Origin: Candidatus Saccharimonadales bacterium
Lineage (GTDB): Bacteria > Patescibacteriota > Saccharimonadia > Saccharimonadales > JAYRRP01
Direction of reading: 5' to 3'
NCBI GenBank assembly: GCA_041906765.1
Contig: JAYRIP010000001.1
Location: forward strand, 13,061 to 77,060
DNA length: 64,000 bases
Made by a program: the position numbers and the translations under genes. Of this stretch, positions 4,356 through 60,259 are shown one piece after another. Within the stretch, counting starts at the first letter, position 1. The number at the start of each line of letters is the position of its first letter. The notes beneath the pieces were generated by a model. It was not told where the DNA came from, made no database searches, and worked only from the letters and a program-made list of their open reading frames with translations.

Positions 4356-4432
4356 GACGAACATAATTGATTTTGGATGTTTATTTTGCTCATGCTTGCA
4401 TAGAGACATTGAAGTTTTACAATGTACTTATT

Positions 4433-4768: not shown

Positions 4769-4804
4769 GAGACACAAAATACGCTTGTGCTACTATTTAG
4801 GCAC

Positions 4805-5113: not shown

Positions 5114-5127
5114 CTTCGTTCGCTAGG

Positions 5128-5553: not shown

Positions 5554-5589
5554 TACGGTTTAGTATAACTCATCCAAGATCATTAATAT

Positions 5590-5991
5590 TCAACGTCGGA
5601 CATTGAGAGAGAGTCCCATAATGACGAATGCTACTATAAAGAAAACGACTTGCAGAGGATTAAAACCTATCAATAGTATCTGGTAGGTAAGCCAAGCGGT
5701 AAGCAGCACACCAATAGTAAATGCCACCAACCACGCATGACGTTCACCTATCCATATCTCGAAACTGGTAGCAAGCGGAATGAGACCAAGAATACCAAGC
5801 AGGAACAAACCAGGCCAAAAGTAACTGTGGACGGGCGCACTCTTTAAAAGTGTTGGTGATAGGTGTAAAACTCCAGCCGTATGCGTGTTGCTGACCATTG
5901 CCAAGCCCCCGGTAATTCCACATAGACCTAAGAAAATCAATACCCCCATAAGTAGAAATGTTTGTGTCCGGTATGATTGGAAATTTGGCAT
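5590..5991 (-). CDS. Hypothetical 4-TM membrane protein
   Basis: 133 aa, four hydrophobic segments, no recognised motif. Confidence 0.55.
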   Translation of the reverse strand: MPNFQSYRTQTFLLMGVLIFLGLCGITGGLAMVSNTHTAGVLHLSPTLLKSAPVHSYFWPGLFLLGILGLIPLATSFEIWIGERHAWLVAFTIGVLLTAWLTYQILLIGFNPLQVVFFIVAFVIMGLSLNVRR

Positions 5992-6082
5992 AAGGTATCT
6001 CCTTAAAACTCATTATGCCATATTTAAAATGCCCGTGCTTGGGTTGACGTAACCAGCTCACAGCTCTAGGCTGGATAGTAAG

Positions 6083-7369
6083 ATGTTACAAAAAGCTAAA
6101 CAGAAGGCTAAGTCTGTTGCTGAAAAGGCCCGCTTGTTAATCGGTCAGGGTGAAGTGCATTTGCATGGACATGAAGTCGAAACGGCAAGGGAATATATCG
6201 CCGCGTATTGGGAAAAATTGAAGCGCTATCATCCAAAAGATGACGAAACACTGCTCGGCTTGCCTGAGCCTTATCTTGTTCCTGCCTTTGAAGCCGGACA
6301 TGAGTTCGACTTTAATGAGATGTACTACTGGGATAGTTACTTCATGGTTCAGGGCATGCTGGATCGTGAGCATCAGGAACTAGTGACAGGTATCCTCACT
6401 AATTTGCTGGACTTACAGCGTCGCTTTAAGGCTATACCCAACGCATCACGAACCTATCTGACTGGACGCTCGCAACCACCATTTCTGACCAGTTTTATTC
6501 TTGATGTCTATGACGTATATCAACCTGGCGAAAAGTGGCTGCGCACTGCCATGGAACGGGCTCGTGATGAATATGAAAAGGTTTGGATGGGTACCGCAAA
6601 GCCGAACTGGCGGCAAGTCTATCGGGGCTTGAGCCGCTACTATGACATCAATATGTTGCATGATCTTGCTGAAGCAGAAAGCGGTTGGGACATGACACCT
6701 CGCTTCAACCGGAAGGCGTTGAATTACTTACCGGTAGATTTGAATAGTTTGCTCTACAAATATGAAATGGATTTTTCCCGGGCGGAACGGATTTTTGGCA
6801 ACGGCGTAAAGGCTGACGAGTGGGAACAGATGGCAGCTGCCCGCAAACAGACCATGAATGAACTAATGTGGAGCAATAACCGCAATTTGTTTTATGACTA
6901 TAATTTCGTTAAGGAAAAACGTGGCACAGTGAGCTCATTGGCGGCGTACTTCCCCATGTGGGCAGGGCTTGCTACTGACCAACAGGCCAAAGAACTGGTA
7001 AAAAATCTCAAGAAATTTGAATTTAAAGGTGGCTTGGGTACGACAGACCAGCAATTGAACCAACGCCTTCCAGGAACTTTACCAGGTTCTATGCCAACCC
7101 AATGGGCATATCCTAACGGTTGGGCGCCTCTGCATTTTATCGTGATTAAAGGTTTGCAACGGTATGGCTACACGCAGGATGCACGCCGTATCGCGCTAAA
7201 GTGGCTTAATACTAACTTGAGCTGGTTTGAAAGACACCATGTTTTTTTGGAGAAGTACAACGTAGTTTCACCAGATAAACCACCACTGAAAGGGGTGTAT
7301 CCTTCGCAGACTGGCTTTGGCTGGACGAACGCAGTATTTGAGCGGCTCTGCCGAGAATATATAGACTAA
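6083..7369 (+). CDS. Trehalase (glycoside hydrolase family 37)
   Basis: GH37 signatures FNEMYYWDSYF and QWAYPNGWAPL, plus QPPFLTSF and ESGWDMTPRF. Confidence 0.85.
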   Translation: MLQKAKQKAKSVAEKARLLIGQGEVHLHGHEVETAREYIAAYWEKLKRYHPKDDETLLGLPEPYLVPAFEAGHEFDFNEMYYWDSYFMVQGMLDREHQELVTGILTNLLDLQRRFKAIPNASRTYLTGRSQPPFLTSFILDVYDVYQPGEKWLRTAMERARDEYEKVWMGTAKPNWRQVYRGLSRYYDINMLHDLAEAESGWDMTPRFNRKALNYLPVDLNSLLYKYEMDFSRAERIFGNGVKADEWEQMAAARKQTMNELMWSNNRNLFYDYNFVKEKRGTVSSLAAYFPMWAGLATDQQAKELVKNLKKFEFKGGLGTTDQQLNQRLPGTLPGSMPTQWAYPNGWAPLHFIVIKGLQRYGYTQDARRIALKWLNTNLSWFERHHVFLEKYNVVSPDKPPLKGVYPSQTGFGWTNAVFERLCREYID

Positions 7370-7446
7370 TTGGCATATTTTGGGCAGTGGTTTGGACGTC
7401 TTGATTTGTCAAAAAAATTGACAAAATTTAAGTTTAATCTTTAACA

Positions 7447-7976
7447 TTGTTTATGCACGAATCTACGCCTTTTGATACTGCTAACTACATCAATAAACTT
7501 CAAAACCAGTTAGCATATATTAAAAACATCTACACGATTGAACGCTCAGACGTAGTCGACTTTCAGAGGTGGTTGCACAGCCCAGAGCAGACGGTTGCCT
7601 ATTTAGATATTGAAGGAACCAGCCCCACAATAACCAATCACTTGTCGGATGTAACATACAAAATACAAGGGGGCGAGGGTAGGATGCTAACGAATCATCC
7701 ATAACAAACCTGCAAGCTGGCACAGAAGTAACAATTTTTAAAGGTCATCAATACAGGTATAGCGGAGAATTTGATGCTGTACTAGAAGCTAGACCTGGTT
7801 TAGACAGCAGATTTGTAACTTTTCGAGGTAGTAAGCTTGGAAGAAAAGAAGCCAAAGAGTTAAAGCAGATACAGGGTGAGCGGCCTGGGTATATGAGAGC
7901 AATTGCCAAAATGCTCAATTTTGCTCTTGAGGCTGTTGAGCTTACTAATCCACACACCAAAGACGGATACCAATAA
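7447..7976 (+). pseudogene. Hypothetical gene apparently split by a -1 frameshift (ORF 7447-7704 plus a start-less protein-like frame 7683-7976)
   Basis: The frame 7683-7976 reads DANESSITNLQAGTEVTIFKGHQYRYSGEFDAVLEARPG...HTKDGYQ*. It has no ATG/GTG/TTG start that would give at least 60 aa. It overlaps the end of the 85-aa ORF in the -1 frame. Confidence 0.35.
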
Positions 7977-8026
7977 GAGCAAGAGCGGTTGGACTTAATG
8001 GTCAATAAAGGTAGACTAGTAAAGTT

Positions 8027-9499
8027 ATGAATTTTTATGTGACGACCTCTATTCCTTACGTCAATGGTGATCCGCATATTGGGTTTGGCATGGAACTGTT
8101 GCAGGCAGATGTGATAGCCCGGGCGGGTCGCAAGCAAGGCAAGCCGGTTTTATTTAGCACCGGCACCGATGAACACGGCGGTAAGATTGCTGAGCGTGCG
8201 GCAGAACTCAAACTGACCCCCAAAGCGTATACAGACAAAATGAGCCAACAATTCCGCGATCTTACCAAGCTACTAAATATCAGCAACGATCGATTTATTC
8301 GTACCACCGATGCTGGGCATGAGCAACGCGCCCGTATAATCTGGCAAAAATTAAAGGCTGATATTTATAAGGGTAAATACATCGGTTTATATTGCACCGG
8401 TTGCGAGGCTTTTGTCAGCGAGGCGGCAGCCAAAGAACACAAAGGTGTTTGTCCGTATCACAAAAAGCCGTATGAAAAGCTCGAAGAAGAAAATTATTTT
8501 TTCAAACTTAGCAAGTATGCTCCAGAAATAGAAAAACTTATCGCCGGTGATGAGCTTCTAGTAATTCCGCAAACCCGCAAACATGAAATCTTACGGGTTA
8601 TCAAGGATGGATTATCCGACATAAGTATTAGCCGGCCGAAAGAAAAGATTGCATGGGGTATATCGGTGCCAGGTGATACATCGCAGGTAATGTATGTGTG
8701 GTTTGAGGCGCTTATGAACTATATCACCGTGCTTGGCTATCCGGAGCATGCTGATTTTAAGAAGTTTTGGCCAGCTAACGTGCAGGTACTGGGCAAGGAT
8801 ATCTTACGCTTCCATGCAGGGGTATGGCCGGGTATGCTGCTGGCGCTGGGTTTACCATTACCCAAAATCTTGTATGTGCATGGTTTTATCACCGTTGAAG
8901 GCCAGAAAATCAGCAAGAGCCAGGGCAACAATATTCATCCAAAGCAGATTATTGACCAGTATGGGGTAGATGTGTTTCGTTATTATTTTTTGCGGCGCAT
9001 ACCGAGTTATGAAGATGGCGATTTTAGTGCAAAGAGGCTGGATGAAGCCTATAACAATGAGTTAGCCAATGAGCTTGGGAATGCGGTACAACGAACCGCA
9101 GTAATGATTCAGAAATACCAAAATGGAATAATTGGAGAAATTCCGCCTGGCGAGCATGACACCGCGCCGTATTGGAATGCTATCGAACAATGCCGGTTTG
9201 ATCGTGCGCTTGACGAAGTGTGGGAGCAAGTCCGGGGTCTCAATCAATATGTAGACGAGGAGAAACCCTGGTTGTTAGCCAAGAATAAAGACGACGAACA
9301 TTTGCGTGAAGTGCTGGCTTACCAAGCTAGTTGTTTGCTGGAGATTGCTGATTTATTAGAGCCATTTATGCCCGAGACAGCCGCCAAAATTAAGTATGTC
9401 TTTAAGGATGGGGTAGTCCGTCCCCTTAAAGGCACTCTCTTCCCGCGTACCGATGTGTCACCAGCTTATCCTCAGTCTGGTTCTACCGGCGCTCGGTAG
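8027..9499 (+). CDS. metG: Methionyl-tRNA synthetase (short form)
   Basis: PYVNGDPHIGF (HIGH-type motif) and KISKSQGN (KMSKS-type motif); Cys-rich insertion CTGCEAF...CPYH. Confidence 0.9.
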   Translation: MNFYVTTSIPYVNGDPHIGFGMELLQADVIARAGRKQGKPVLFSTGTDEHGGKIAERAAELKLTPKAYTDKMSQQFRDLTKLLNISNDRFIRTTDAGHEQRARIIWQKLKADIYKGKYIGLYCTGCEAFVSEAAAKEHKGVCPYHKKPYEKLEEENYFFKLSKYAPEIEKLIAGDELLVIPQTRKHEILRVIKDGLSDISISRPKEKIAWGISVPGDTSQVMYVWFEALMNYITVLGYPEHADFKKFWPANVQVLGKDILRFHAGVWPGMLLALGLPLPKILYVHGFITVEGQKISKSQGNNIHPKQIIDQYGVDVFRYYFLRRIPSYEDGDFSAKRLDEAYNNELANELGNAVQRTAVMIQKYQNGIIGEIPPGEHDTAPYWNAIEQCRFDRALDEVWEQVRGLNQYVDEEKPWLLAKNKDDEHLREVLAYQASCLLEIADLLEPFMPETAAKIKYVFKDGVVRPLKGTLFPRTDVSPAYPQSGSTGAR

Positions 9500-9948
9500 C
9501 CACTGATAGTCAGGTAGCCTAATCTTATCATTTCGGCGGACATCTCATCACTGATCATATTTCCGAATATTCTTTTTGGCGTGATAACCTGCCAAAACCC
9601 GACTACTTCTCCATAGGCGAACAGTAGAAGCGCAGACCTTTGACTGTCTAAAGCTGCACCGGCATGTAAGTAGCTTGGATCTTCTTCTAAGGGAGGAAGA
9701 TTCCGATAGTAGTTGCCTGGATATAACGATAGTATTTCAGCTACTTCCGGACGATAACGCAATGCTGCCTCAAGACTGACTGTTACACGCATGATCTCCA
9801 TATCAACCAACACATCACCAGCAAGTGGTATTTCATCTTTGGCAGGTCTTTGGAAAATTTCGGCTTCGTATAGTACGTAATTGAGACGTGGTATAGCTTC
9901 TTCCAAAGAGTTTGGCTTAGAGTAAGGATATTTTTCCATATTTGCCAT
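9472..9948 (-). CDS. Hypothetical protein (gene 4 of a minus-strand cassette)
   Basis: ORF of about 158 aa from ATG 9948 (a TTG alternative lies at 9963). The 3' end overlaps the metG 3' end convergently by 28 nt. No recognised domain. Confidence 0.5.
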   Translation of the reverse strand: MANMEKYPYSKPNSLEEAIPRLNYVLYEAEIFQRPAKDEIPLAGDVLVDMEIMRVTVSLEAALRYRPEVAEILSLYPGNYYRNLPPLEEDPSYLHAGAALDSQRSALLLFAYGEVVGFWQVITPKRIFGNMISDEMSAEMIRLGYLTISGYRAPVEPD

Positions 9949-9952
9949 GCCG

Positions 9953-10297
9953 TTAATCTGCAAAAATTATGTGAATATTGTCGGCCTCATCTTCGTATAC
10001 TCCAATACCAAAAAATGGTACGGCACGCTGGGTTTCGGGTAAGTTATAATATTCCGCAAAATCTGCAATTTGATTCTGCAGCTCCGCTACCTCTTCAGGA
10101 GGATTAACCGCTTGAGCATACACCTTACTTGCGATTGTATTGAGGACTATTGGCAGCTCTCCCGTACACTCATCAATAAAACCGAGCGCTTTTGCACGGT
10201 ACAGAATTTGTTTGCTGCGCGTTACTATCTCATTTGTCCTATCCATTATCTCTGGCGGATGTAAAGGCGCTGTATTGTATTGGTTCTCGTTTTCCAT
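9953..10297 (-). CDS. Hypothetical protein, tandem paralog A
   Basis: 114 aa. It aligns with the next gene over RSKqIL.R...G.LP...DF.E(F/Y)YN.P.TQ.A.P(F/Y).GI.V(Y/F).DE. Confidence 0.55.
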   Translation of the reverse strand: MENENQYNTAPLHPPEIMDRTNEIVTRSKQILYRAKALGFIDECTGELPIVLNTIASKVYAQAVNPPEEVAELQNQIADFAEYYNLPETQRAVPFFGIGVYEDEADNIHIIFAD

Positions 10298-10339
10298 GGC
10301 AGTGCTCCTAATTTTATGAAAGGTTTGATCAGGCTAATC

Positions 10340-10720
10340 TTAATAAGCAAAGTACAAATCCAACTCTCCGATTTCATCACGAAAAACTTCTATACCCCAA
10401 TAAGGCAGGGCATCTTGTGTCGTAGGTTGGTTATAAAATTCGACGAAATCTATTAACTCTTCATGTAGTCGGTTGATATCTTGGTCTTGGTCGACAAAAG
10501 CGGTTTTCATCACCAAGATGCTTAACATTTCTGGAAGTGATCCTTCTGTATCTTTGCAAAACAGGTCAAGCTCCTCGCCGCGTTTTAAAATTGTCTTGCT
10601 TCTGATTGCTACTGTTTGTAATATTTCGCCTCCCTCAATGGCAGCTGCTCGGCCAGCTTCGTTATTGGCTTCTAGCGCTAATGCCTCTGTCTCTCGCGCT
10701 CGGTCGGGTTCGTATTCCAT
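10340..10720 (-). CDS. Hypothetical protein, tandem paralog B
   Basis: 126 aa; paralogous to 9953-10297, sharing the C-terminal motif FVEFYNQPTTQDALPYWGIEVFRDE versus FAEYYNLPETQRAVPFFGIGVYEDE. Confidence 0.55.
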   Translation of the reverse strand: MEYEPDRARETEALALEANNEAGRAAAIEGGEILQTVAIRSKTILKRGEELDLFCKDTEGSLPEMLSILVMKTAFVDQDQDINRLHEELIDFVEFYNQPTTQDALPYWGIEVFRDEIGELDLYFAY

Positions 10721-10742
10721 GTGCTTTTTCTCCCTTTTATTG

Positions 10743-11009
10743 TTAACCCCTAAGCAAATTCGCCACCTCCTTTTGGCGAATATTTGTTTTATTAACCTTG
10801 TCGATTAATGGCTTTTGATTGTTTCGCTTTGTTAGCTGTAGAGGTGCAATGAGATAGGGGACGTCTAGACCGTTGATAGGATAGTGTGTGAAAAGATCTG
10901 GACGTTGTTTTTCCTCGTAGCGAACCGTTTGAACAGGATCACGCAAACGATCCGTGAGTTCGATTATTTGTTTTATGTTATGTGCTGCCCATTGATTTAT
11001 CTTTTCCAT
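10743..11009 (-). CDS. Hypothetical small protein (first gene of the cassette)
   Basis: 88 aa ORF directly downstream of a strong promoter. No recognised domain. Confidence 0.5.
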   Translation of the reverse strand: MEKINQWAAHNIKQIIELTDRLRDPVQTVRYEEKQRPDLFTHYPINGLDVPYLIAPLQLTKRNNQKPLIDKVNKTNIRQKEVANLLRG

Positions 11010-11047
11010 AGTACCCTCCTATAGAAACTGTTAATATAACACTAACT

Positions 11048-11075
11048 ATCATAGCAATAGTAAGTGTATTGTCAA
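11048..11075 (-). promoter_or_regulatory. Sigma-70-like promoter TTGACA-N16-TATGAT (read on the minus strand) driving the 4-gene cassette
   Basis: The reverse complement of 11070-11075 is TTGACA and of 11048-11053 is TATGAT. The promoter lies about 40 nt upstream of the ATG at 11009. Confidence 0.5.
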
Positions 11076-11167
11076 CACTAATAATGTTTGCTCAGTGGTT
11101 TGGGCGGTAGTTACGCCGAGTAAGGTCAGCACATATATTCTTTTGCTGCTAGATGTTTTTGGTGTGG

Positions 11168-11848
11168 TTAGTCAAAGCTACTCGGGAGAATTTCTAAATT
11201 TTGATGATTGAATTTATACAAACGGGCAGGGCGGTGAGCCCCTTCTCGTTGATATTCGTTTGTTGCTGCAACAAGCCCTAAAGTAAGGAACTTCTTACGG
11301 AAATTGCGTTTATCAAGCTTATGACCTAGAACTGCTTCATAGGCAGATTGCAGATCAGTAAGTGTAAAGAATTTACCCAATAAGGCATAAACAGCATTCG
11401 TGTAGGTGAGCTTTGCTTGCAAACGCTCATGGGCATATCTGATGATAGCTCTGTGATCATAAGCAAGCTTCGGCAAATTGTTCACCGGAAAGAATTGTGG
11501 GTTTTGAATGGTTTTGCTACCTTCCGGTAAAAGGTCTGTTCCCAAACCCATATAGGTTACTGAAACTGCGTGACCGCGAGGATCACGGTCAACAGTATCA
11601 AACGTATAAAGCTGTTCAATGAGTCTTAAATCTTCAGTTGCTAGGCCACTCTTTATTTTAAGTACGCGGCTTAGTGCTTCCTGCGTAGTCTCGCCAGCTG
11701 CAATGTAACCACCCGGCAAAGCCCACATATCCTTAAATGGCTCCTGCGCACGCTTGATAAGTAGCACAAAAAGCTCAGCATCGATTAATTGGAAAATGAC
11801 ACTATCGACGGTTAAAATAGGAGGAATATACGTACCCTTTGACATCAT
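11168..11848 (-). CDS. NrtR-like regulator (degenerate Nudix domain plus C-terminal winged helix)
   Basis: The Nudix box is degraded (GGYIAAGETTQEALSRVLKIKSG lacks the REx2EE core). The C-terminal DKRNFRKKFLTLGLV...RPARLYKF is wHTH-like, as in NrtR. Confidence 0.7.
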   Translation of the reverse strand: MMSKGTYIPPILTVDSVIFQLIDAELFVLLIKRAQEPFKDMWALPGGYIAAGETTQEALSRVLKIKSGLATEDLRLIEQLYTFDTVDRDPRGHAVSVTYMGLGTDLLPEGSKTIQNPQFFPVNNLPKLAYDHRAIIRYAHERLQAKLTYTNAVYALLGKFFTLTDLQSAYEAVLGHKLDKRNFRKKFLTLGLVAATNEYQREGAHRPARLYKFNHQNLEILPSSFD

Positions 11849-11879
11849 GTATATTATACACTAACAAAAATAATATACA
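11848..11879. promoter_or_regulatory. Perfect 9-bp inverted repeat TGTATATTA-N14-TAATATACA filling the 31-bp divergent nrtR-like/tatD intergenic region
   Basis: The arms at 11848-11856 and 11871-11879 are exact reverse complements. I read it as a candidate operator. Confidence 0.3.
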
Positions 11880-12656
11880 ATGTTATCTATGGAATTTGTT
11901 GATACCCATTGTCATATACACGGCAAGGATTACGGGGTGGATCCCGATAAGGCATTAAGCGCTGCTCGAGGAATGGGTGTAACACATATTGTTTGCGTAG
12001 GTACCGATGTAGAAGATAGTCATCAGGTGATAGAGTTTGTAAGTAAACGAGAAGGTTGTTTTGCAGCCATTGGTATTCATCCGCATGAAGCAAAGCGATA
12101 TATCGGGAAAAAGCAGGAGCTAGAAGAGTTCAGTAAACTCGCTGAAAAAGCCAAGGTAGTCGCTGTAGGCGAGTGCGGGCTTGATTACTATTACCACCAT
12201 TCTCCTAAGAATGATCAGGAAGTACTGCTTCGTTTGCAGATTGAGCTGGCTCTGAAGCACGACTTGCCACTAATCTTTCATGTTCGTCATGCCTTTGAAG
12301 ACTTTTGGCGTATCGTAGGCGAATATCCAAAAGTCCGAGGGGTAATTCATAGTTTTACCGCTCACCTAAAAGAGTTAGATGAAGCGTTGGCACGTGGTTT
12401 TTACATTGGTCTTAATGGGATTATGACGTTTACGAAAGACGAGCAGCAGCTAGCAGCAGCGCGACAAGTACCCCTGGAACGATTAGTTCTCGAAACCGAT
12501 GCACCATTTTTGACGCCTATTCCTTATCGTGGTAAAATATGTGAACCAAAACATGTGGTGGTAACTGCGGAATTTCTCGCTCAACTTAGAAGCGAATCGC
12601 TAGCCCAGCTTGCGGCAGCTACTACTAAAAACGCTGCGGATCTATTCCGCTTATGA
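11880..12656 (+). CDS. tatD: TatD-family metal-dependent hydrolase/DNase
   Basis: FVDTHCHIH, GECGLDYYY and ETDAPFLTP motifs. Confidence 0.85.
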   Translation: MLSMEFVDTHCHIHGKDYGVDPDKALSAARGMGVTHIVCVGTDVEDSHQVIEFVSKREGCFAAIGIHPHEAKRYIGKKQELEEFSKLAEKAKVVAVGECGLDYYYHHSPKNDQEVLLRLQIELALKHDLPLIFHVRHAFEDFWRIVGEYPKVRGVIHSFTAHLKELDEALARGFYIGLNGIMTFTKDEQQLAAARQVPLERLVLETDAPFLTPIPYRGKICEPKHVVVTAEFLAQLRSESLAQLAAATTKNAADLFRL

Positions 12657-12665
12657 GGAAGTGTA

Positions 12666-12989
12666 ATGCAAGGGATGGAACAACAGACGCGCCGGCAAGA
12701 TATCTTGCCAAAAGAAATTTTACAAGCGGTAACTCACCGCCTGGAGGTGCTTGCCTCGGCAGAAAATAATCTAGAAAACGCAGTCTTATCGGTTTTATCC
12801 AAAGAAATGCCACAACTAAGCCTTGCCCGGCCGGTAGCTACCCAAACCTGTGAGATGAGTGTATCGCATGCAAGTAATGAACAAACACCGCAAATCCAGA
12901 CCGCACCTCGTCACGATAATGAGGCAGCAACAGGGTTGGAGCAAATCCGTCGAGCTATAAACGAGATATTTGAGGTACCCAGTGATTAA
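12666..12989 (+). CDS. Hypothetical protein
   Basis: 107-aa ORF in an operon-like position. No motif recognised. Confidence 0.4.
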   Translation: MQGMEQQTRRQDILPKEILQAVTHRLEVLASAENNLENAVLSVLSKEMPQLSLARPVATQTCEMSVSHASNEQTPQIQTAPRHDNEAATGLEQIRRAINEIFEVPSD

Positions 12990-27309: not shown

Positions 27310-28512
27310 ATGGGTTTTTCCTTGCAAAGCAGGGATGACCCAGTTTTAGTAAGAATTACGCAGGAGTATTTTATTCGTACTCAATTACGTGCCCTGGAAC
27401 AACCTCGGCAATCGCGGCTTACCGTCCTTCCCTCTCGCCGTAATAAACGTCTTTCTACCCGTCTTTCCAAGCGCTCCAAAAAGCGATTGGTTCGTTTTGG
27501 CATACTTGCCGCAAACCTTGCCGTACTGGTGGGTGTGCTTGGCTTTGTCTTGAGAAGTCCTTCCTCAAGTCGCCCGGTTCGCCAAGGTGCAGCGATCATA
27601 TCCCCAGAAGCTGCTGAAGCTAATCCCCTTGACCAGTTATCATCGGCCGATATTGCAGTGCACGTGGCACACATGACACGCTTAGAGGAGTCAACTTCGG
27701 TGGTGAATAAGGCAGATACCGTGAATGCCCAACTGGCAGTGACACCGGCTGATACAACCGTGGTTGCGAAACCTCAGGTGGTAGCCACTGCGCTTAAATC
27801 CCGAAAAGACATCCAAACTTATACCACTCAAGCTGGCGATACTATTAGCAGTGTTGCGGCGAAATTCAATGTCACATCTGATAGTATCCGATGGTCAAAT
27901 AGTTTGACCGGTGAAAGTTTGCCAGCTGGCAAAGAATTGGTTATTCCCCCTATTAGTGGGGTAGTGTATGTCGTAAAGCCGGGAGATACACCTGATTTGC
28001 TGGCGGCTAAGTTTCACGCCAACAAAGACCAGATCATCATCTTTAATGATGCAGAGGTAGGTGGTTTGCCAGTGGGGCAAAGAATTGTGATTCCAGATGG
28101 TGTGCAAAGCCAGCCAGGCCGCGTGAATCAGTTACTGTCCTATGGAAACAACTTCGCTTGGGGTGGGAGTGCACCCCTATATGGTGGCGGTGGCTATGAC
28201 TATGGCTATTGTACTTACTGGGCTGCGCTTCGTCGCTCGCAAATTGGTCGGCCAGTGCCAAGTAATCTAGGAAATGCAAGCACATGGAAAGTTCTGGCAG
28301 CGCGTGCCGGTCTAGGCGTGGGGAATTCACCACAAGCTGGCGCAGTTATCTGGACTCCACCTCGTGACTACTATGGACACGTAGGCTTTGTGGAATCGGT
28401 TAATCCGGATGGAAGTGTCAATGTTTCAGAAATGAATACGGCAGGTTGGGGCCGGGTAAGCTATAAGACCTTATCTGCAGCTGACGCTGCTCGTTATTCC
28501 TACATATACTAA
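27310..28512 (+). CDS. Peptidoglycan hydrolase with two LysM domains and a C-terminal CHAP domain
   Basis: LysM motifs YTTQAGDTISSVAAKFNV and YVVKPGDTPDLLAAKFH. CHAP motifs CTYWAA ... GHVGFVESV ... SEMN. Confidence 0.8.
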   Translation: MGFSLQSRDDPVLVRITQEYFIRTQLRALEQPRQSRLTVLPSRRNKRLSTRLSKRSKKRLVRFGILAANLAVLVGVLGFVLRSPSSSRPVRQGAAIISPEAAEANPLDQLSSADIAVHVAHMTRLEESTSVVNKADTVNAQLAVTPADTTVVAKPQVVATALKSRKDIQTYTTQAGDTISSVAAKFNVTSDSIRWSNSLTGESLPAGKELVIPPISGVVYVVKPGDTPDLLAAKFHANKDQIIIFNDAEVGGLPVGQRIVIPDGVQSQPGRVNQLLSYGNNFAWGGSAPLYGGGGYDYGYCTYWAALRRSQIGRPVPSNLGNASTWKVLAARAGLGVGNSPQAGAVIWTPPRDYYGHVGFVESVNPDGSVNVSEMNTAGWGRVSYKTLSAADAARYSYIY

Positions 28513-44720: not shown

Positions 44721-44807
44721 GCGCGAGTGGCGGAATTGGTAGACGCGCTACCTTGAGGTGGTAGTGGGAGCAATCCTGTGGAGGTTCAAGTCCTCTCTCG
44801 CGCACCA
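44721..44807 (+). tRNA. tRNA-Leu (anticodon GAG), CCA encoded
   Basis: Acceptor strands GCGCGAG/CTCGCGC pair. The anticodon loop is TTGAGGT. It has a long variable arm and the T-arm GGAGGTTCAAGTCCTCT. Confidence 0.9.
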
Positions 44808-51953: not shown

Positions 51954-52040
51954 GCCGCAGTGGTGAAATTGGTATACACGCTAGTTTCAGGGACTAGTGG
52001 GAGCAATCCCGTGGAGGTTCGAGTCCTCTCTGCGGCACCA
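51954..52040 (+). tRNA. tRNA-Leu (anticodon CAG), CCA encoded
   Basis: Acceptor strands GCCGCAG/CTGCGGC pair. The anticodon loop is TTCAGGG. It has a long variable arm and the T-arm GGAGGTTCGAGTCCTCT. Confidence 0.9.
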
Positions 52041-52224
52041 TATTGGGTTCAGTGCCTAGTTGGAGTGCGGGTTGGTAACTATAAGTGAGACTCGAACCGA
52101 TAGGCGTACATTGCTTGGGGCAATGTACGGAATCCTTGCTTGGCTGAGCGAGCATTTGCGCGCGGGCAACGCGCACAAATGTTGCCGAGCGAACATGAGG
52201 AGTCGAGTCCTCTCTGCGGCACCA
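52019..52224 (+). repeat. 22-nt direct repeat of the tRNA-Leu(CAG) 3' end (TCGAGTCCTCTCTGCGGCACCA at 52019-52040 and 52203-52224) bracketing a 162-nt structured spacer
   Basis: The copies are exact. The spacer holds hairpins gcgtacattgc/gcaatgtacg (52104-52129) and catttgcgcgc/cgcgcacaaatg (52153-52181). It also holds an inverted 10-nt copy of the T-arm (gactcgaacc, 52089-52098). Confidence 0.85.
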
Positions 52225-52301
52225 GGCATAGATAGTATGTATACAAATAACGAGATTGCTACGAGAGCTTAAATACGCTATTATTCGTCGGTGATCAGTA
52301 T

Positions 52302-52378
52302 GGGTGGCTAGCTCAGTTGGCTAGAGCACCTCGTTTACACCGAGGGGGTCGGGGGTTCGAATCCCTCGCCACCCACCA
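52302..52378 (+). tRNA. tRNA-Val (anticodon TAC), CCA encoded
   Basis: Acceptor strands GGGTGGC/GCCACCC pair. The anticodon loop is TTTACAC and the T-arm is GGGGGTTCGAATCCCTC. Confidence 0.9.
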
Positions 52379-52564
52379 TACAGCTTTTGTTAAGAATTGT
52401 TTGTGGCGAAGGAAGCCAACTGCTTGGCTTTCGTGGGATGAAAACAGTCGGAGCCCTGTGTGAGTTTTGGCCTAAGGGCCAAAGGCGAACACGGTGAGAC
52501 GGGCTCGCGAGACTTTACCGTCAGGTAAAGTACTTGTGAGTCGAATCCCTCGCCACCCACCATA
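52357..52564 (+). repeat. 24-nt direct repeat of the tRNA-Val 3' end (TCGAATCCCTCGCCACCCACCATA at 52357-52380 and 52541-52564) bracketing a 162-nt structured spacer
   Basis: The copies are exact. The spacer has GTGAG (52460-52464) followed by a 7-bp hairpin tttggcc taag ggccaaa (52466-52483) and then gcgaac. A second hairpin ctttacc gtca ggtaaag lies at 52513-52530. Confidence 0.85.
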
Positions 52565-52566
52565 AG

Positions 52567-52592
52567 CACCCCTAAATGCAAGGGGTGTTTTT
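52567..52592 (+). terminator. Rho-independent terminator following the second copy of the tRNA-Val 3' end
   Basis: cacccct aaatgca aggggtg followed by TTTTT. Confidence 0.7.
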
Positions 52593-52702
52593 GTTGGCAA
52601 AGCAAGCCGGCTGTCTGGACGTACTTTAAGCAATTGTTAAAAAGCTCACTGCTTATAGGGTACTGCCCGAGTTATGCTGAAGGGCAGCAAGGAGAGAAAC
52701 CA

Positions 52703-53074
52703 ATGGCTAATTCCCATTTACGGCAAGCAGCAGCAGATGTATGGAGAGCTGTGGAAGATGCCGGCCGGGAAGCACGCGAGTTACAGGTATTAATTGATGA
52801 AACAAGGCGTGCCAGGGAACAACAAACGCGAAGCTTACGGCGCCAGCGCTCATTACTGCTTTCCACGGCTGCCCAGCAAAGTACCGTAACGGAAGAACGG
52901 TTTGCGCTTGAACGTCAGGCGCAGGATCTCGAAAATCGGGCAATCCAGACTGAGCAAGATATGAATCGCAAGGTCAATCAGCTCATCCAGGCTGTGCACC
53001 ATAAGGAGTTGATGCGCAATAACCTCGAATCACAAGCTCGTAATTTGGAACGCCAAGCTGCCCAGTGGGGTTAG
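52703..53074 (+). CDS. Hypothetical coiled-coil protein
   Basis: The start is set at ATG 52703, preceded by AAGGAGAG. It is about 123 aa, rich in Q/R/E heptads (RELQVLIDETRRAREQQTRSLRRQ...). Confidence 0.55.
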   Translation: MANSHLRQAAADVWRAVEDAGREARELQVLIDETRRAREQQTRSLRRQRSLLLSTAAQQSTVTEERFALERQAQDLENRAIQTEQDMNRKVNQLIQAVHHKELMRNNLESQARNLERQAAQWG

Positions 53075-53149
53075 CAGGGTCCAAGTTGAATGTTTACCTC
53101 TTATCAGTTATGATAAATGTGCTTTTTGCCAGTTTAAATGGCGCTTTAG

Positions 53150-53225
53150 CTCAGTTGGTAGAGCAGAGGCCTGAAGAGCCTTGTGTCCCCAGTTCGAGTC
53201 TGGGAGGCGCCACCATAAAACTTTT
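53150..53225 (+). tRNA. tRNA-Phe (anticodon GAA), CCA encoded
   Basis: Acceptor strands GGCGCTT/AGGCGCC pair. The anticodon loop is CTGAAGA and the T-arm is CCCAGTTCGAGTCTGGG. Confidence 0.9.
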
Positions 53226-53393
53226 GTAACCTTTTTCCTGGTGAGAAAAGTTTCATTATGTCTCTACAGACGAAGAACTGGATCTTTTGCGTAGCAAAAG
53301 CAGTTTGACGCCAGCGAAGTCACGCACAGGAATATATTCCGAGCATGACGAAGTGCGCGAAGGCGTAGCCGAAGGTCTGGGAGGCGCCACCAT
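53208..53393 (+). repeat. 19-nt direct repeat of the tRNA-Phe 3' end (GTCTGGGAGGCGCCACCAT at 53208-53226 and 53375-53393) bracketing a 149-nt structured spacer
   Basis: The copies are exact. The spacer holds hairpins cttttgc gta gcaaaag (53294-53310), the palindrome ggaatatattcc, and tgcgc gaag gcgta near the 3' end. Confidence 0.85.
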
Positions 53394-53405
53394 GGCAAGA
53401 TTACA

Positions 53406-53436
53406 AACAAAAAGAGGGAATCAAGCCCTCTTTTTG
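53406..53436 (+). terminator. Rho-independent terminator following the second copy of the tRNA-Phe 3' end
   Basis: aaaaagaggg aatcaa gccctcttttt. Confidence 0.7.
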
Positions 53437-53450
53437 TTTAAATAAACGTT

Positions 53451-54872
53451 ATGCATGAGAACAACAGACCTAGAATCACAGGCGTAGAAACAGAGTTCGG
53501 TTTCGTATATGAGCTGCAACAAGGCAACGGCTGCTATGATTTCGCCTATAGCCCCCACGCCGACACTATATTATCCGATAACTTACCCGCGGGTATTCAC
53601 CGTACCAACAAGCGTGGGATGCTTAGTAACGGTGCCCGGGTATATATAGATATTGGCGCCCACCCAGAATTTTCTACGGCCGAAGCCGCCACTTTCAAGG
53701 ACGTCATAGCGCAAGACCTGGCAGGCGAACGCATTATTTTTCAATCTTTTCAACGGATGGCAGAAAGAGGCATGCTGAAAAGCTTTCAGCTAAACAAAAG
53801 GGTGGCGGACATGTGTGGCACTTACTGGGGCAGGCATGAGAACTATCTAGTACCACGCACGCTGGACACAAATACCGAAATCGTGCCTCAGGTTGCCTTA
53901 CATTTGGCTACTAGGTCAATATGGGCTGGAGCCGGAATGCTTCGTCCCGACAGCGAATACGTGATGGCACAAAAGATAAATGCTATTCGCACCCTGTGCA
54001 GCTATTCCGCTAGCAGGGAAGGCTTGCGCCCGTTGGTGGATATAGGTCGTGATGAGCCGCATGCCGATAAATCATTGTGGCGCCGTCTTCATGTGGCTTC
54101 GGCAGACTCTAATATGTTCCCGTGGACTTCTTGGATGTCTCTCGGCACAACATCAATCGTCTTAAGAATGGTGGAACAGGGGGATGACTTAAGTGACCTA
54201 CACTTGTACAATCCGGTTCAAGCAGCACATAAGACAATACGTGATCTTGACCTGAATGCCAGCTTGTCGCTAAAAAATTCCACAAAACCAATGACAGCTT
54301 TAGACATACAGGAAGCTTTAGCGGAACGGGCGTGTGTAATGTCACAAAACGGTTGTCTTCCACCTGAAGAGCAGCAGATAGCTGCTGAATGGATGAAATT
54401 GTGCCAGGATTTAAGGCGGGATTCCGAACAATGCGCTGAACGAGTAGAGTGGATTGCAAAATATATGTTTCTTGGCAAAGTCGCCGCCAAAAAGAATATA
54501 GCCTTTCATAGCGAGCCCCTAAGGAAGTTAGATATAGCTTGGGACAACCTAGATACAGACAAAGGCATAGCTCAAAAAATCCGCGCCAAACGAAGTTTGC
54601 CCGAGATAGTAAGCGAAGAAGAAGTGCAGGCAGCCATGATAGAGCCTCCGCACACGAGGGCCCATACAAGAGGACGGCTTATAAAAAACTTTGCTAGCCT
54701 ACAGAATCTAGAATCCCCTCCGATTAGTGAACATATTATTGATTGGCATGAATTTGCGATTAAACACTCTAAGGGTGGCAATACTGGAATCTATCAAGTT
54801 GTTCTTAATGATCCTTACGAAACCGAATCTGCCGAAGCAGATGAGATGCTGTATCTGATGTCTAAATTTTAA
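53451..54872 (+). CDS. Pup-ligase/deamidase family protein (PafA/Dop-like)
   Basis: RITGVETEFG, NGARVYIDIGAHPEFSTAE and GRHENYLV match the conserved PafA/Dop N-terminal and active-site motifs. 473 aa. Confidence 0.75.
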   Translation: MHENNRPRITGVETEFGFVYELQQGNGCYDFAYSPHADTILSDNLPAGIHRTNKRGMLSNGARVYIDIGAHPEFSTAEAATFKDVIAQDLAGERIIFQSFQRMAERGMLKSFQLNKRVADMCGTYWGRHENYLVPRTLDTNTEIVPQVALHLATRSIWAGAGMLRPDSEYVMAQKINAIRTLCSYSASREGLRPLVDIGRDEPHADKSLWRRLHVASADSNMFPWTSWMSLGTTSIVLRMVEQGDDLSDLHLYNPVQAAHKTIRDLDLNASLSLKNSTKPMTALDIQEALAERACVMSQNGCLPPEEQQIAAEWMKLCQDLRRDSEQCAERVEWIAKYMFLGKVAAKKNIAFHSEPLRKLDIAWDNLDTDKGIAQKIRAKRSLPEIVSEEEVQAAMIEPPHTRAHTRGRLIKNFASLQNLESPPISEHIIDWHEFAIKHSKGGNTGIYQVVLNDPYETESAEADEMLYLMSKF

Positions 54873-55076
54873 CTGGTTGCACAGATAACGTTCACTCATT
54901 ATAATCTTACCCTGTTAATAGCTATTAGGATTAGGGTAGAAATTTTAATTGTTTAAAGTTTTTATCCCCCGATTAAAGAGAGGATTCTTTAATCGGAAGA
55001 GGAGCAGGCAACAAACGTATCTGCAAAACCAAAAGTTCCGCCTTGGTTTCGCAAGCAAGTTGTTAAACTGCGACGT

Positions 55077-55153
55077 GCGGGTGTAGCTCAGTTGTTTAGA
55101 GCGCTTCCTTGCCAAGGAAGAGGCCAGGGGTTAGAGTCCCCTCACCCGCACCA
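55077..55153 (+). tRNA. tRNA-Gly (anticodon GCC), CCA encoded
   Basis: Acceptor strands GCGGGTG/CACCCGC pair. The anticodon loop is TTGCCAA. The T-loop TTAGAGT is unusual. Confidence 0.9.
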
Positions 55154-55341
55154 AGTAAAGAGTCGGTCGAAAGACCGGCTTTTTACTTGGTCTGAGGCGG
55201 CTCTTACGCCTGGTCGAGAAGAGGCCAGGGTGAGAAGTGCCAGTGGCACTTCGCAAGGGAACCTTCCGATGAAAACTTGTTTTCAATGGTGAAGTTCCGG
55301 GCCCGCGGAAGGCGGGGAGAGTCCCCTCACCCGCACCAAGT
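55133..55341 (+). repeat. 24-nt direct repeat of the tRNA-Gly 3' end (AGAGTCCCCTCACCCGCACCAAGT at 55133-55156 and 55318-55341) bracketing a 164-nt structured spacer
   Basis: The copies are exact. The spacer starts with a terminator-like hairpin (55154-55190). It also contains a 13-nt copy of the tRNA variable/T-stem segment gaagaggccaggg (55218-55230), then GGGTGAG and hairpin aagtgcc agt ggcactt (55235-55251), followed by tgaaaa cttg ttttca and cccgc ggaag gcggg. Confidence 0.85.
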
Positions 55342-55713
55342 TGACACCAATGACTGTTCCCTATCAAGGGAGCTTTTATTTTTCTTGATTGAGCTGTCGG
55401 TTTCAACCTTAGCCAGTTCTGACTTCATTTTTGGTAAGTTGTCCTTGATTGGGATGACCCATGGATTAGGCTCTATGCTTACCGTTTTATTTGTAAGGAC
55501 TGGGTTACAGCCTATGGCTAACAGAATCTCTCTCCTCATACCGAAGTTACCCGCTTTAAAATTCTCACTAGCATTACATAGTCGTTCAAGAGTCATGCCG
55601 ATGATCTCGTACCAGTTTTTGACCCTTTCTGCGGTATCTTTCTGCTCTTTTTGGCGCAGGGCAAGCTCGGTCTCTATGACAATGCGAAGTGGCAAGAATT
55701 GAGCAATAGGCAC
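55327..55713 (-). pseudogene. Possible C-terminal remnant of a large serine recombinase
   Basis: 128-aa GTG-start ORF with a stop two codons upstream. GNFGMRREILLAIGCNPVLTNKTVSIEPNPW resembles, from memory, the tail motif (..K.EIL.ALGSN..L.DKKL.) of large serine recombinases. No catalytic N-domain is present. Confidence 0.35.
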
Positions 55714-58151: not shown

Positions 58152-58795
58152 TGGCTATAGTCTTACGCCGAGGCGGTGAAAAACAGTATAAAAGCGGTAC
58201 CGGCAGGGTAACCAGTGAGGATAGTCTAAAAGCAGACCAACTGGATAATGAGCTTAGTATAAAAATCAAGGCATATGAACAGGATGCTCTGAAAAGAGGT
58301 CTTATACTCCCCAATGGCACAAAAAAAGACGCATTACGGATTTGGTATGATATCGGAAAGTTGCTGTATGACATAGCCGATAAATATGGTGTATTGGGCA
58401 CATCCGATGAGCTTTACTATTGGCAGTCAATTTACGACCACGTTTCGCCTTTAATTCAAAAACTCGGGCCTCCTCAAAGTACATCGAACACTAGGAATCA
58501 CTTTAGATTGTGCGCTTACATGGCTAGTAAGGGCGATTGGGACTTTGTTAGCAGTGTGGGTAACTGGTCCGTATGGCGAGACTTATTAGATAATAGTAGA
58601 ATCCAAGAAGATCCACGGGTATTTGATTGGGTAGTTAATGCAATACATACGTCAGGCCTTGGGCATAAGGAAGTCAGACCGTTCGTACACGAAGTCCGGC
58701 GAAGTATAAAAAACAAAGACACTACGGTATTAACCGACAAAGAGTTGGTAGCTAAGCTGCAACCATTACTGGGTTTGATTCCTTCGAAATCTTAA
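58148..58795 (+). CDS. Hypothetical 215-aa protein, translationally coupled (ATGA) to the GHKL ATPase
   Basis: There is a 4-nt start/stop overlap with the upstream gene. I could not identify any nuclease motif. Confidence 0.6.
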   Translation: MMAIVLRRGGEKQYKSGTGRVTSEDSLKADQLDNELSIKIKAYEQDALKRGLILPNGTKKDALRIWYDIGKLLYDIADKYGVLGTSDELYYWQSIYDHVSPLIQKLGPPQSTSNTRNHFRLCAYMASKGDWDFVSSVGNWSVWRDLLDNSRIQEDPRVFDWVVNAIHTSGLGHKEVRPFVHEVRRSIKNKDTTVLTDKELVAKLQPLLGLIPSKS

Positions 58796-59798
58796 CCAAA
58801 TGGGTATTCATTTCAAGGGCCAGAAGCGTTTCTTTTACGCTTTCTGCCACAGCTTGAGCAACAGGCACAGATACGGCGTTGCCTAATTGCTTATAGGCTT
58901 GTGTAACAGGGATATCAAATGAGTAGTCATCGGGGAATCCTTGAAGTCGTGCGCTTTCTCTGGTTGTAATCTTCCTAACCCCTCGAGAATTTAATGGTGA
59001 GCCGGTTCGGTTTACGGCATCCCTTGGCTTAGGAACATCTTGGATTAGATTTCGCTCCCTTCCCATATTGCCAACTACAAGCGCGGTAGATATGCCCTCT
59101 GGATCTAGAATGCGATATCCGAAGCCATGGCCTTTGGCAGCATGCCTTTGCTTGTGTTTTTCGAGTCCGTCCATGTATGTTTGCGAAAGATAGTAGTAAT
59201 CGTGCACCTCTTCCTTTTCAAGAATGTCCTTAACGCGAAGTTTAAGTTCAACAGGCTCTGGAAACTTAAATTCTGCAGAATGGTCCTTGAAGCCCACTAT
59301 GTAAATTCGCTTCCTATCTTGAGGAAGCCCATAATCCTTTGTGTTTAGAACTTGGGTATATACCTTATACTCTAGCTCGTTTTCAAGCTTATCCATGATG
59401 ATCTTAAACGTATTGCCCCCATCATGTTTAACGAGGTTTTTTACATTCTCAAGTACAAATGCTTTTGGACGCTTAGCCTTTAGTATTTCGAGCACATTAA
59501 AAAAGAGCGTTCCCCTTGCGTCATAGAAACCGTGTAGCTTACCGATTTTAGAAAATGGCTGGCAGGGGAAGCCCCCCGTAATTATGTCGGCGTAGGGTAT
59601 GTCGTTTGGCTCGACTTTAGTAATGTCTTGTAAATCTAATGCGCCTTCGCCAAAATAGCCGTCGAAGGAGACCTTGCACCACTTATCAAAATCATTTGAA
59701 TATATAGTTCTAAAACCAGCCCTCTCAAATCCGAGCCTAAAACCGCCGATTCCAGCAAACAGATCTACTAAGGTATATTTGTTATCGGATGTTGTCAT
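58752..59798 (-). CDS. dcm: DNA (cytosine-5)-methyltransferase
   Basis: Motif I DLFAGIGGF, motif IV GGFPCQPFS, motif VI ENVKNL, and motif X QLGNAVSVPV. Confidence 0.9.
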   Translation of the reverse strand: MTTSDNKYTLVDLFAGIGGFRLGFERAGFRTIYSNDFDKWCKVSFDGYFGEGALDLQDITKVEPNDIPYADIITGGFPCQPFSKIGKLHGFYDARGTLFFNVLEILKAKRPKAFVLENVKNLVKHDGGNTFKIIMDKLENELEYKVYTQVLNTKDYGLPQDRKRIYIVGFKDHSAEFKFPEPVELKLRVKDILEKEEVHDYYYLSQTYMDGLEKHKQRHAAKGHGFGYRILDPEGISTALVVGNMGRERNLIQDVPKPRDAVNRTGSPLNSRGVRKITTRESARLQGFPDDYSFDIPVTQAYKQLGNAVSVPVAQAVAESVKETLLALEMNTHLVKISKESNPVMVAA

Positions 59799-59842
59799 AA
59801 TGTTTAATTATAGCCGGAAACGTAATAATTGGCATCAAGGTT

Positions 59843-60259
59843 ATGGATAAATTTGATTCGAAAAAAAGAAGCGAGATAATGTCGCGCATAAAATCCAAGG
59901 ACTCTGTAGCGGAGAAAATCGTTTTCAGAGAACTTAGGCGTAAAAATATTTATTTTCAAAAGCATTATAAAAATGCTCCCGGAAAGCCAGACATTGCACT
60001 GCCCAGAAAAAGGCGTGCAGTATTTATAGATGGCGACTTTTGGCATGGTAGAGATTTTATTCAACTTTCAGAACAGCGTAAATTAAGTGTCTTCTGGATT
60101 AAAAAGTTAACTGGCAATATAGACAGAGACAAACGTCAGCTTGAAGAGCTGGCTCAACTCAACTGGAGGGTGCTTAGAGTTTGGGAAAGTGACATAAAGA
60201 GAATACGGACTAGATCAGCAGAAATTGAAAAGATTGTCTCGTTTCTAGTCGCAGACTAA
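59843..60259 (+). CDS. vsr: Very-short-patch repair endonuclease Vsr
   Basis: KKRSEIMSRIKSKDSVAEK...GKPDIALPRKRRAVFIDGDFWHG is typical of Vsr. It is divergent from dcm. Confidence 0.9.
   Translation: MDKFDSKKRSEIMSRIKSKDSVAEKIVFRELRRKNIYFQKHYKNAPGKPDIALPRKRRAVFIDGDFWHGRDFIQLSEQRKLSVFWIKKLTGNIDRDKRQLEELAQLNWRVLRVWESDIKRIRTRSAEIEKIVSFLVAD

Follow-up and report, generated by a model that had tools for sequence, protein, structure and literature searches.

As Williams reportedly described in 2002, the genes of transfer RNA (tRNA) and transfer-messenger RNA (tmRNA) serve as attachment (att) sites at which prophages and genomic islands carrying an integrase insert. In the Thermoproteales, transposition of introns between tRNA genes has been proposed. 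Related descriptions concern repeats of ssrA in Dehalococcoides (PMC3146451), small bacterial repeats such as REP/BIME, Correia, ERIC and the Rickettsia palindromic elements (reviewed in PMC2229807), group I introns located in tRNA and tmRNA loops of Patescibacteria (PMC13011429, PMC11915505), and the archaeal non-canonical tRNA introns and split or permuted tRNA genes (PMC3978253). In the present study, we analysed 64 kb of DNA from a Candidatus Saccharimonadales genome (contig JAYRIP010000001.1; the whole stretch of 64,000 nucleotides is referred to below as the window). Saccharibacteria genomes are streamlined, yet five of the six tRNA/tmRNA genes of the window carry a module of ~180 nucleotides (nt) built around a folded element, which we designate E. 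This element fits none of the following: att sites, REPINs or MITEs (miniature transposable elements with inverted repeats), archaeal tRNA introns, and the group I introns of Patescibacteria.

No description of E was found in Rfam 15 or in full-text literature searches, and it is described here as a small, non-autonomous structured element lying outside the searched RNA-family libraries. With its fixed ends, insertion into loops with replacement of 1–3 nt, tRNA-sense orientation and selected fold, E behaves as an insertion element. We assign a probability of roughly 55% to the reading that E is a discrete element, non-autonomous and dependent on its fold, which inserts into the loops of tRNA genes, and that the modules are copies of E residing in a spare partial copy of the gene. 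The main rival is a structured RNA selected by the host; the two readings are not mutually exclusive.

REPIN/RAYT and MITE-like repeats resemble E in being small, non-coding, multi-copy, hairpin-rich and non-autonomous; some of them are long-lived and some lie inside RNA genes. In contrast to these repeats, E lacks terminal inverted repeats and target duplications, forms a four-helix junction instead of a simple palindrome, targets tRNA-gene loops and displays deep structural covariation across a bacterial class. Miniature derivatives of IS200/IS605 and the omega RNA of TnpB share with E strand-specific folded ends, the absence of target duplication, the possibility of precise excision and a scaffold that abuts the flank. 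E differs from them in that it has no conserved left tetranucleotide, is not accompanied by any TnpA or TnpB that we could see, and is oriented according to the tRNA and not to the GC skew.

Anatomy of the modules in the window

Five tRNA genes were recognized in the window by ARAGORN, and the tmRNA gene was added by Rfam. These genes and the components of the modules are as follows (distances are given from copy to copy):

586–977, + strand: intact tmRNA gene (Rfam RF00023, 67 bits)
978–1017, + strand: terminator-like hairpin directly after the tmRNA CCA, the stem pairing CCA with TGG (sequence)
1029–1042, + strand: imperfect inverted copy of the tmRNA 3' end (AGGTGGGGACTGCC), paired with the tail in the minimum-free-energy fold
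1051–1137, + strand: E insert of type A in the T-loop of a partial tmRNA copy (covariance model R1, 49.7 bits, E=5e-13; nhmmer E=3.5e-8)
1138–1156, + strand: tail of the tmRNA module, exact 19-nt copy of 959–977 by sequence comparison (distance 179)
44721–44807, + strand: tRNA-Leu(GAG), without a module, serving as internal control (ARAGORN)
51954–52040, + strand: intact tRNA-Leu(CAG) (ARAGORN, Rfam)
52073–52098, + strand: imperfect inverted copy of the tRNA-Leu 3' end (TGGTAAC..GAGACTCGAACC; reverse-complement comparison), paired with the tail in the fold
52099–52196, + strand: insert of type D, upstream of a near-complete T-arm copy, i.e. in the variable-arm position (fold z=-4.0 to -4.4)
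52197–52224, + strand: direct copy composed of an imperfect T-stem 5' strand and the exact 22-nt tail (52203–52224 = 52019–52040; distance 184)
52256–52284: promoter-like site before tRNA-Val (promoter scan)
52302–52378, + strand: intact tRNA-Val(TAC) (ARAGORN, Rfam)
52401–52415, + strand: acceptor/T-stem 3' strands of tRNA-Val, copied imperfectly in inverted orientation and paired with the tail in a two-species consensus fold
52445–52451, + strand: direct copy of the variable loop and the start of the T-stem 5' strand (CAGTCGG; comparison with the tRNA)
52452–52540, + strand: E insert of type B (GTGAG-hairpin-GCGAA, like type A)
52541–52564, + strand: tail, exact 24-nt copy of 52357–52380 (distance 184), with a terminator at 52567–52593
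53086–53114: promoter-like site before tRNA-Phe (promoter scan)
53140–53215, + strand: intact tRNA-Phe(GAA) (ARAGORN, Rfam)
53239–53281, + strand: T-arm and CCA of tRNA-Phe with 9 trailer nt, copied imperfectly in inverted orientation (reverse-complement comparison)
53306–53374, + strand: E insert of type C, preceded by CAGTT in direct orientation (5' end of the T-stem and T54/55)
53375–53393, + strand: tail, exact 19-nt copy of 53198–53216 (distance 177), with the native terminator at 53409–53436
55077–55153, + strand: intact tRNA-Gly(GCC) (ARAGORN, Rfam)
55154–55190, + strand: terminator-like hairpin after tRNA-Gly (terminator scan)
55188–55213, + strand: 3' third of tRNA-Gly, copied imperfectly in inverted orientation (z=5.3 in comparison with the reverse-complemented tRNA 3' end)
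55218–55230, + strand: variable loop and T-stem 5' strand, copied in direct orientation and exact over 13 nt (GAAGAGGCCAGGG)
55230–55317, + strand: E insert of type A (model R1, 103 bits, E=9e-29)
55318–55341, + strand: tail, exact 24-nt copy of 55133–55156 (distance 185), with a terminator-like site at 55356–55383

The original prediction had claimed that a 19–24 nt repeat, identical to the gene's own T-loop-to-CCA end, comes after five of the six genes, and that only tRNA-Leu(GAG) lacks a module; both statements were confirmed. All five repeats start inside the T-loop and end 0–3 nt beyond the CCA; by chance, an identical stretch of 19 nt or longer inside 200 nt would be expected ~1e-9 times per gene. 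The tRNA-Phe gene, previously placed at 53150–53225, had to be moved 10 nt to the left, so that its copy-to-copy distance becomes 177 instead of 167 bp and its spacer ~158 instead of 149 nt. The claimed uniformity of spacing was upheld apart from these Phe values (177–185 bp after correction), and due to their correction the five modules are even more uniform than first noted. The tmRNA gene (586–977) was missed by ARAGORN and found by Rfam at 67 bits; standard tools easily overlook tmRNA and interrupted tRNA copies in this lineage.

A common plan was observed in all five modules: an inverted copy, a turn, a direct copy, the folded insert and the tail. The segment placed directly 3' of each gene forms a loop or a terminator-like hairpin. 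The inverted copy is imperfect, derives from the 3' third of the gene and begins with TGG. In the Phe module it includes the trailer, and it was therefore copied from DNA or a primary transcript, not from mature tRNA. At the Val locus, one C-G pair of the helix formed by the inverted copy and the tail is replaced by U-A in step with the acceptor stem of the tRNA (comparison of two species). The short direct copy comprises the variable loop and the T-stem 5' strand, and the insert interrupts the partial gene copy at ~T54/C56, except in the Leu module, where it lies just upstream of a near-complete T-arm copy. The tail thus represents the 3' side of a second gene copy that is partial and split by the insert, and not an att scar; tRNA-derived sequence is also present 5' of the insert.

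The spacers had been described as rich in hairpins, and they do fold better than shuffled sequences (z from -2.0 to -5.3). Inspection by eye also corroborated that at the Val and Phe loci the sole terminator comes after the second copy (52567–52593 and 53409–53436); the Leu, Val and Phe modules may be co-transcribed with their tRNAs. A terminator-like hairpin separates gene and module at the tmRNA and Gly loci, and the hairpin-after-CCA layout of the tmRNA locus recurs in ~35 type A modules of other genomes. The same repeat arrangement as at the tmRNA gene follows a presumed tmRNA 3' end in locus L046, judged from the repeat GTACCCGGCAGCTCCACCAAA, the gene itself being without annotation. The promoter scan predicted no promoter inside the modules; TTGAAC-like boxes were considered as promoters and rejected, as they represent inverted T-loop copies with a spacing unlike that of promoters.

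The inserts are discrete folded units of 70–95 nt. The idea that the five spacers form one sequence family was dropped, since global alignment joins only those of tmRNA and Gly (z=9.6); the modules follow one plan with several types of insert. The tmRNA and Gly inserts share the type A fold (~90 nt) and are the only ones in the window matched by covariance model R1. The Val insert (type B) has a homologue at the same site in locus L001 (nhmmer E=2e-24), with 4 compensatory pairs. Homologues of the Phe insert (type C) were detected at tRNA-Phe in L009/L008 and in L022, with 7 compensatory pairs relative to L009. The Leu insert (type D) does not match the type A model (6.4 bits), and a related module was found after tRNA-Gln in L088.

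Conserved fold, tRNA linkage and turnover of E

The type A fold consists, in order, of GUGAG, helix P2, whose tip GCC-AGU-GGC never varies, GCAAG, a long helix P3, CGGG and helix P4. Alignment of 84 copies (~95 nt, nearly without gaps) and analysis with RNAalifold revealed 30 pairs in three helices, with compensatory changes in 22 of them, so that the covariance model and covariation analysis proposed in the original prediction gave a supportive result for type A. Within this structure 94.3% of cells pair, as against 28–44% with the partners slid, and the covariation score (0.569 vs 0.05–0.11 slid) was reached by none of 500 shuffles. No variation occurs in the alignment at the GUGAG/GCAAG junction or at the tip GCC-AGU-GGC, and one P4 pair is G.U in 74 of the 84 copies; such strand-specific G.U pairs indicate that the fold belongs to the tRNA-sense strand. 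Compensatory pairs above controls and strand-specific G.U pairs, the general marks of a structured RNA, were found in types A, B and C. The modules and nine other loci gave no match to any Rfam 15 family, either at the gathering threshold or at E<=10.

In columns 20–22 and 52–57 of alignment A2, the invariant P2 loop AGU is complementary to a near-invariant RCU of the P3 loop. A P2–P3 loop-loop contact is therefore possible on the basis of complementarity; covariation cannot probe it, because neither loop varies.

The original prediction also proposed a tRNA-tethered structured RNA ending in a T-arm/acceptor mimic. The fold is strongly backed by the covariation and the strand-specific G.U pairs; the mimic is not the conserved part: in many copies elsewhere the acceptor/CCA tail is shortened or mutated while the insert and T-stem are retained, and in modules lying upstream of a tRNA the T-arm/acceptor tail is wholly absent.

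When 185,579 species genomes were scanned for the type A motif (GTGAG-N4-GCCAGTGGC-N5-GCAAG), at least 118 stretches were identified, nearly all of them in Candidatus Saccharibacteria/Saccharimonadales; the motif had no match in 2.9 million viral contigs. A profile search detected 164 copies of E in 917 kb of fetched loci, counts that are biased because the loci were chosen by the type A motif. When a tRNA gene is present within 260 nt, E lies on the same strand in 115 of 118 copies (97%). Two arrangements were distinguished: (i) the downstream type, with the intact tRNA upstream as in the window (40 modules), and (ii) a mirror type, in which a copy of the 5' head, E and a short 3' piece precede the intact tRNA (42 modules). 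Copy-to-copy distances cluster at 172–197 in both. The five-part plan holds in the 40 downstream-type modules, with a significant inverted copy (z>3) in 25 of them; mismatches in the helix between inverted copy and tail are more often G.U than A.C (81 vs 49).

All insertion points are located in loops, with 1–3 tRNA nt replaced: in the T-loop (54/56), the D arm (17/20 and 24-25/27-28), the anticodon loop (31/33) and the variable loop (46/47-49). The left flanks of E vary (AGA, AAC, AAG, GTA, GGG), and no conserved target tetranucleotide was found to the left of E.

The closest relatives, reached via protein homologues (Pup ligase 50–57% identical), contain both filled and precisely empty orthologous sites, a comparison that the original prediction had put forward. 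At the Phe site, an insert is present in the window and in L009, but the site is precisely empty in the close relative L007 and in L001, where the tRNA is joined directly to the flank that otherwise follows the module. In L001 the Gly and Leu sites are precisely empty as well, and the Val site carries a homologous module whose tail matches that species' own, differing acceptor stem (concerted change). The Val site is occupied by type B in the window and L001, by type A in L009 and by a shortened remnant in L007; a further shortened E copy is present in L044. The same tRNA bears unrelated insert types in different lineages.

Double and nested insertions of E also occur: two E elements reside inside one pseudo-tRNA-Pro (L096), and in four loci (L033, L059, L040, L075) E is nested at the P4 position of another E. 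Tandem identical modules of ~184–194 nt were observed in L032 (directly after tRNA-Met) and in L102, as expected from unequal recombination between flanking repeats. An antisense E lies within a direct tandem copy of tRNA-Phe 39–76 and its terminator in L028 (~4118–4349) and L048 (~44–275); there the inverted copy is absent and the E fold is intact. In L064 (5030–5187) a type A E splits the T-loop of a complete tRNA-Gly(CCC) that has no intact copy in its neighbourhood, which makes it the sole complete, stand-alone split tRNA among 104 copies tested. This is either a disrupted dispensable gene or the one case in which removal of E at the RNA level might take place.

Insertion element, host RNA or relic

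The reading of E as an insertion element would account for the structure of the modules as follows. Because an insert in the sole copy of an essential tRNA should be harmful, elements would persist almost exclusively where an intact gene adjoins them, which would account for the complete tRNA beside nearly every E. The partial duplication in direct, inverted and direct orientation may have arisen by fold-back template switching at the hairpins of the tRNA, terminator and E, and would be retained because the intact gene was restored or left. Recombination between the flanking repeats would then cause precise loss, tandem gain and homogenization of the tail with the tRNA. A trans-acting protein may recognize the invariant AGU hairpin. 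The miniature mobile elements envisaged in the original prediction agree with these observations as far as the filled and precisely empty sites and the varied insert types at one tRNA are concerned, but not as worn-down integrase islands.

If E is mobile, it has found a new route to colonize the most conserved genes of the cell without killing it, and an enzyme moving E would be needed; if it is a working RNA, an RNA linked to tRNAs across the whole lineage has a function that has gone unstudied. We regard it as a tentative possibility that E represents a new class of RNA-structured element, i.e. either a mobile one homing to exposed tRNA loops, possibly at the RNA or single-strand level, or a tRNA-scaffolded RNA partner of a protein, which may be installed at most Saccharibacteria tRNA loci. 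That E is categorically new is conceivable, with the odds on the other side. In either case, the partial copies confuse the annotation of tRNAs and genomic islands and mimic att sites, and the covariance model from this analysis offers a direct means to map the E family.

Pfam analysis of the ~60 open reading frames (ORFs) of the window revealed no integrase, transposase or reverse transcriptase, and no recombinase lies near its modules. The 150 ORFs flanking copies of E elsewhere were also examined, and the statements on flanking families rest on the 25 most frequent of 147. These encode ABC transporters, kinases and similar proteins, plus two large serine recombinases; no phage-integrase family was found among them. 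Neither they nor the window contain TnpA, TnpB, IscB or Cas, and no RAYT (Y1 HUH) gene was seen in the 64-kb window or in the 8-kb pieces of the other genomes. The original statement that no integrase gene accompanies the modules was reproduced for the window; next to the copies elsewhere no integrase is enriched, as judged from the families listed above.

Several findings weigh against mobility. In the window and the flanking-gene families we found no enzyme able to move E, and no free or autonomous form of it was seen. E has no terminal inverted repeats (its ends are GTGAG... and ...GTGACC) and no target duplication, so the features defining a MITE, terminal inverted repeats with a fixed target-site duplication, are missing: 1–3 tRNA nt are replaced and none duplicated. 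Agreement of its orientation with the GC skew around it was limited to 80 of 135 cases (59%), and orientation follows the tRNA far better, which also fits a co-transcribed, selected RNA; a constraint at the RNA level or linked to transcription is therefore likely. Orthologous modules persist across lineages with ~50% identical Pup ligases, their helices kept by compensatory change, and one derived, 'zipped' anticodon loop/hairpin of the Gly D-arm type is common to at least six genomes. Saccharibacteria genomes, at roughly 1 Mb, are among the smallest and most streamlined bacterial genomes, and long retention in them looks more like host-level selection than like a selfish passenger. Copies within a genome show identities of 0.42–0.84 against a background of 0.60, i.e. 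no recent burst or homogenization. Finally, the loci from other genomes were selected by the type A motif.

Two variants of movement were considered separately. A recent burst or homogenization within genomes was rejected on the above identity values. Single-strand DNA transposition tied to the lagging-strand template is weakened by the GC-skew agreement of 80/135; the + strand of the window is uniformly G-rich.

The main rival holds that E is a structured RNA produced from tRNA transcription units and selected by the host, mobility being only historical. The tRNA flanks would serve as scaffolds supplying ends, stability or tRNA-specific pairing, and the RNA would possibly act as a cis-acting leader or trailer or as part of a ribonucleoprotein. 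We consider this doubtful. It is favoured by the strong covariation and sense-strand G.U pairs, the 97% same-strand linkage, the presence of modules at 5/6 window tRNA/tmRNA genes, and the lack of a terminator between tRNA and module at Leu, Val and Phe. Retention for a long time at orthologous sites with compensatory change, the excess of G.U over A.C in the mismatches between inverted copy and tail (81 vs 49), together with one compensatory pair between species, and the bases of the junction and of the hairpin tip, whose invariance is typical for a site of protein or tertiary contact, point in the same direction. However, the sites are dispensable, being precisely empty or shortened in close relatives, and the same tRNA carries unrelated insert types. 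In the downstream type A modules a terminator-like hairpin precedes E and no internal promoter is predicted; the rare antisense copies retain the fold, and the acceptor/CCA tail decays in many copies. The nested and tandem copies and the many insertion positions resemble transposition and not gene design.

Each of the three remaining explanations fails in a defining feature that was tested. The first takes the modules for scars left by tyrosine-integrase islands or for miniature forms derived from such islands, with the repeat as att core and the spacer as the fused attP arms. As at classical tRNA att sites, the direct repeat starts in the T-loop and runs to just past the CCA, the gene stays intact, sites occur both filled and precisely empty, and L001 has an island with a large serine recombinase next to tRNA-Gly. 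In contrast to att sites, only ~160 nt separate the repeats and no integrase was found in the 64 kb or among the flanking families, which include two serine recombinases only. Moreover, in 42 modules it is the 5' part of the tRNA that is duplicated, the tRNA sequence also occurs as an inverted copy, and the would-be core is split by E, the repeat being parted by the insert from tRNA identity that extends further 5' (13 nt in Gly). The spacer also has a conserved, covarying fold of RNA type, and the motif had no match in the viral contigs. We consider this explanation very improbable.

The second explanation, a new small intron spliced from tRNA precursors, is more improbable still. E does sit in tRNA loops, including the T-loop, a site of known tmRNA group I introns (PMC11915505), one complete tRNA-Gly(CCC) is interrupted by it, and the inverted copy could align both flanks in the manner of a splint. 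The Patescibacteria group I introns belong to the same phylum, interrupt tRNA and tmRNA loops including the T-loop and are structured RNAs, but E is 70–95 nt long and not >200 nt, and it has no group I core; its size and motifs are unlike those of group I and II introns, and no Rfam intron matched even at E<=10. Archaeal tRNA introns likewise occupy a variety of loop sites (T-loop, variable loop, anticodon, D arm and 25/26 region), are proposed to move between tRNA genes and have hosts that include reduced epibionts, whereas the host of E is bacterial and its inserts lie in non-functional partial copies. We know of no tRNA splicing endonuclease in bacteria. Removal of E in silico restored a predicted tRNA in only 4 of 104 cases, one of them stand-alone, the others lacking the acceptor strand; the exons are almost always incomplete, and the intact gene present beside nearly every copy would be needless for a working intron.

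The third explanation, that E and the next ~20 nt form a guide RNA (an omega RNA of TnpB/IscB, or of CRISPR type) steering a protein to tRNA genes, as in the scaffold with a variable 3' segment of the original prediction, has in its favour that in the window modules a structured scaffold of ~90 nt directly precedes 19–24 nt that match a genomic target exactly, but is scarcely tenable, as this segment is simply the tRNA sequence following the insertion point, with only 9–12 nt in many upstream-type modules, is antisense in L028/L048 and is matched by tRNA sequence on the other side of E, while the left flank has no conserved motif, TnpB, IscB and Cas are missing from the window and the flanking families, Rfam gives no match, and the target would be the cell's own essential neighbouring gene.

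Neighbouring genes

The genes of the window are ordinary housekeeping genes, e.g. those of BipA, WhiB, MetRS, ATP synthase, MnmA, AlaRS, UvrA/C and Pup ligase. The Pup ligase (PafA/Dop family, 53451–54872) has few close homologues, the best non-self match being 57% identical. This family and that of the WhiB regulator (4367–4768) are typical of Actinobacteria, the usual hosts of Saccharibacteria epibionts, whereas the E-motif distribution and the relatives place the window in a Saccharibacteria genome. A 146-aa ORF without a Pfam match (52634–53074) lies between tRNA-Val and tRNA-Phe, and its position is kept in relatives (123–124 aa).

In L001, an island (3213–12948) is situated directly after tRNA-Gly, at the site without a module; it encodes a large serine recombinase, an N6/N4 DNA methylase and an SNF2-type helicase. 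The lysM-TM7 RNA (RF03005; L068, 5587–5735, - strand) was detected ~250 nt from a copy of E, and no RF03005 match was present upstream of the LysM/CHAP gene of the window (27310–28512). At 58752–60259 of the window, a C5 cytosine DNA methylase gene (- strand) adjoins that of a Vsr mismatch endonuclease, and this pair looks like a restriction-modification remnant or module.

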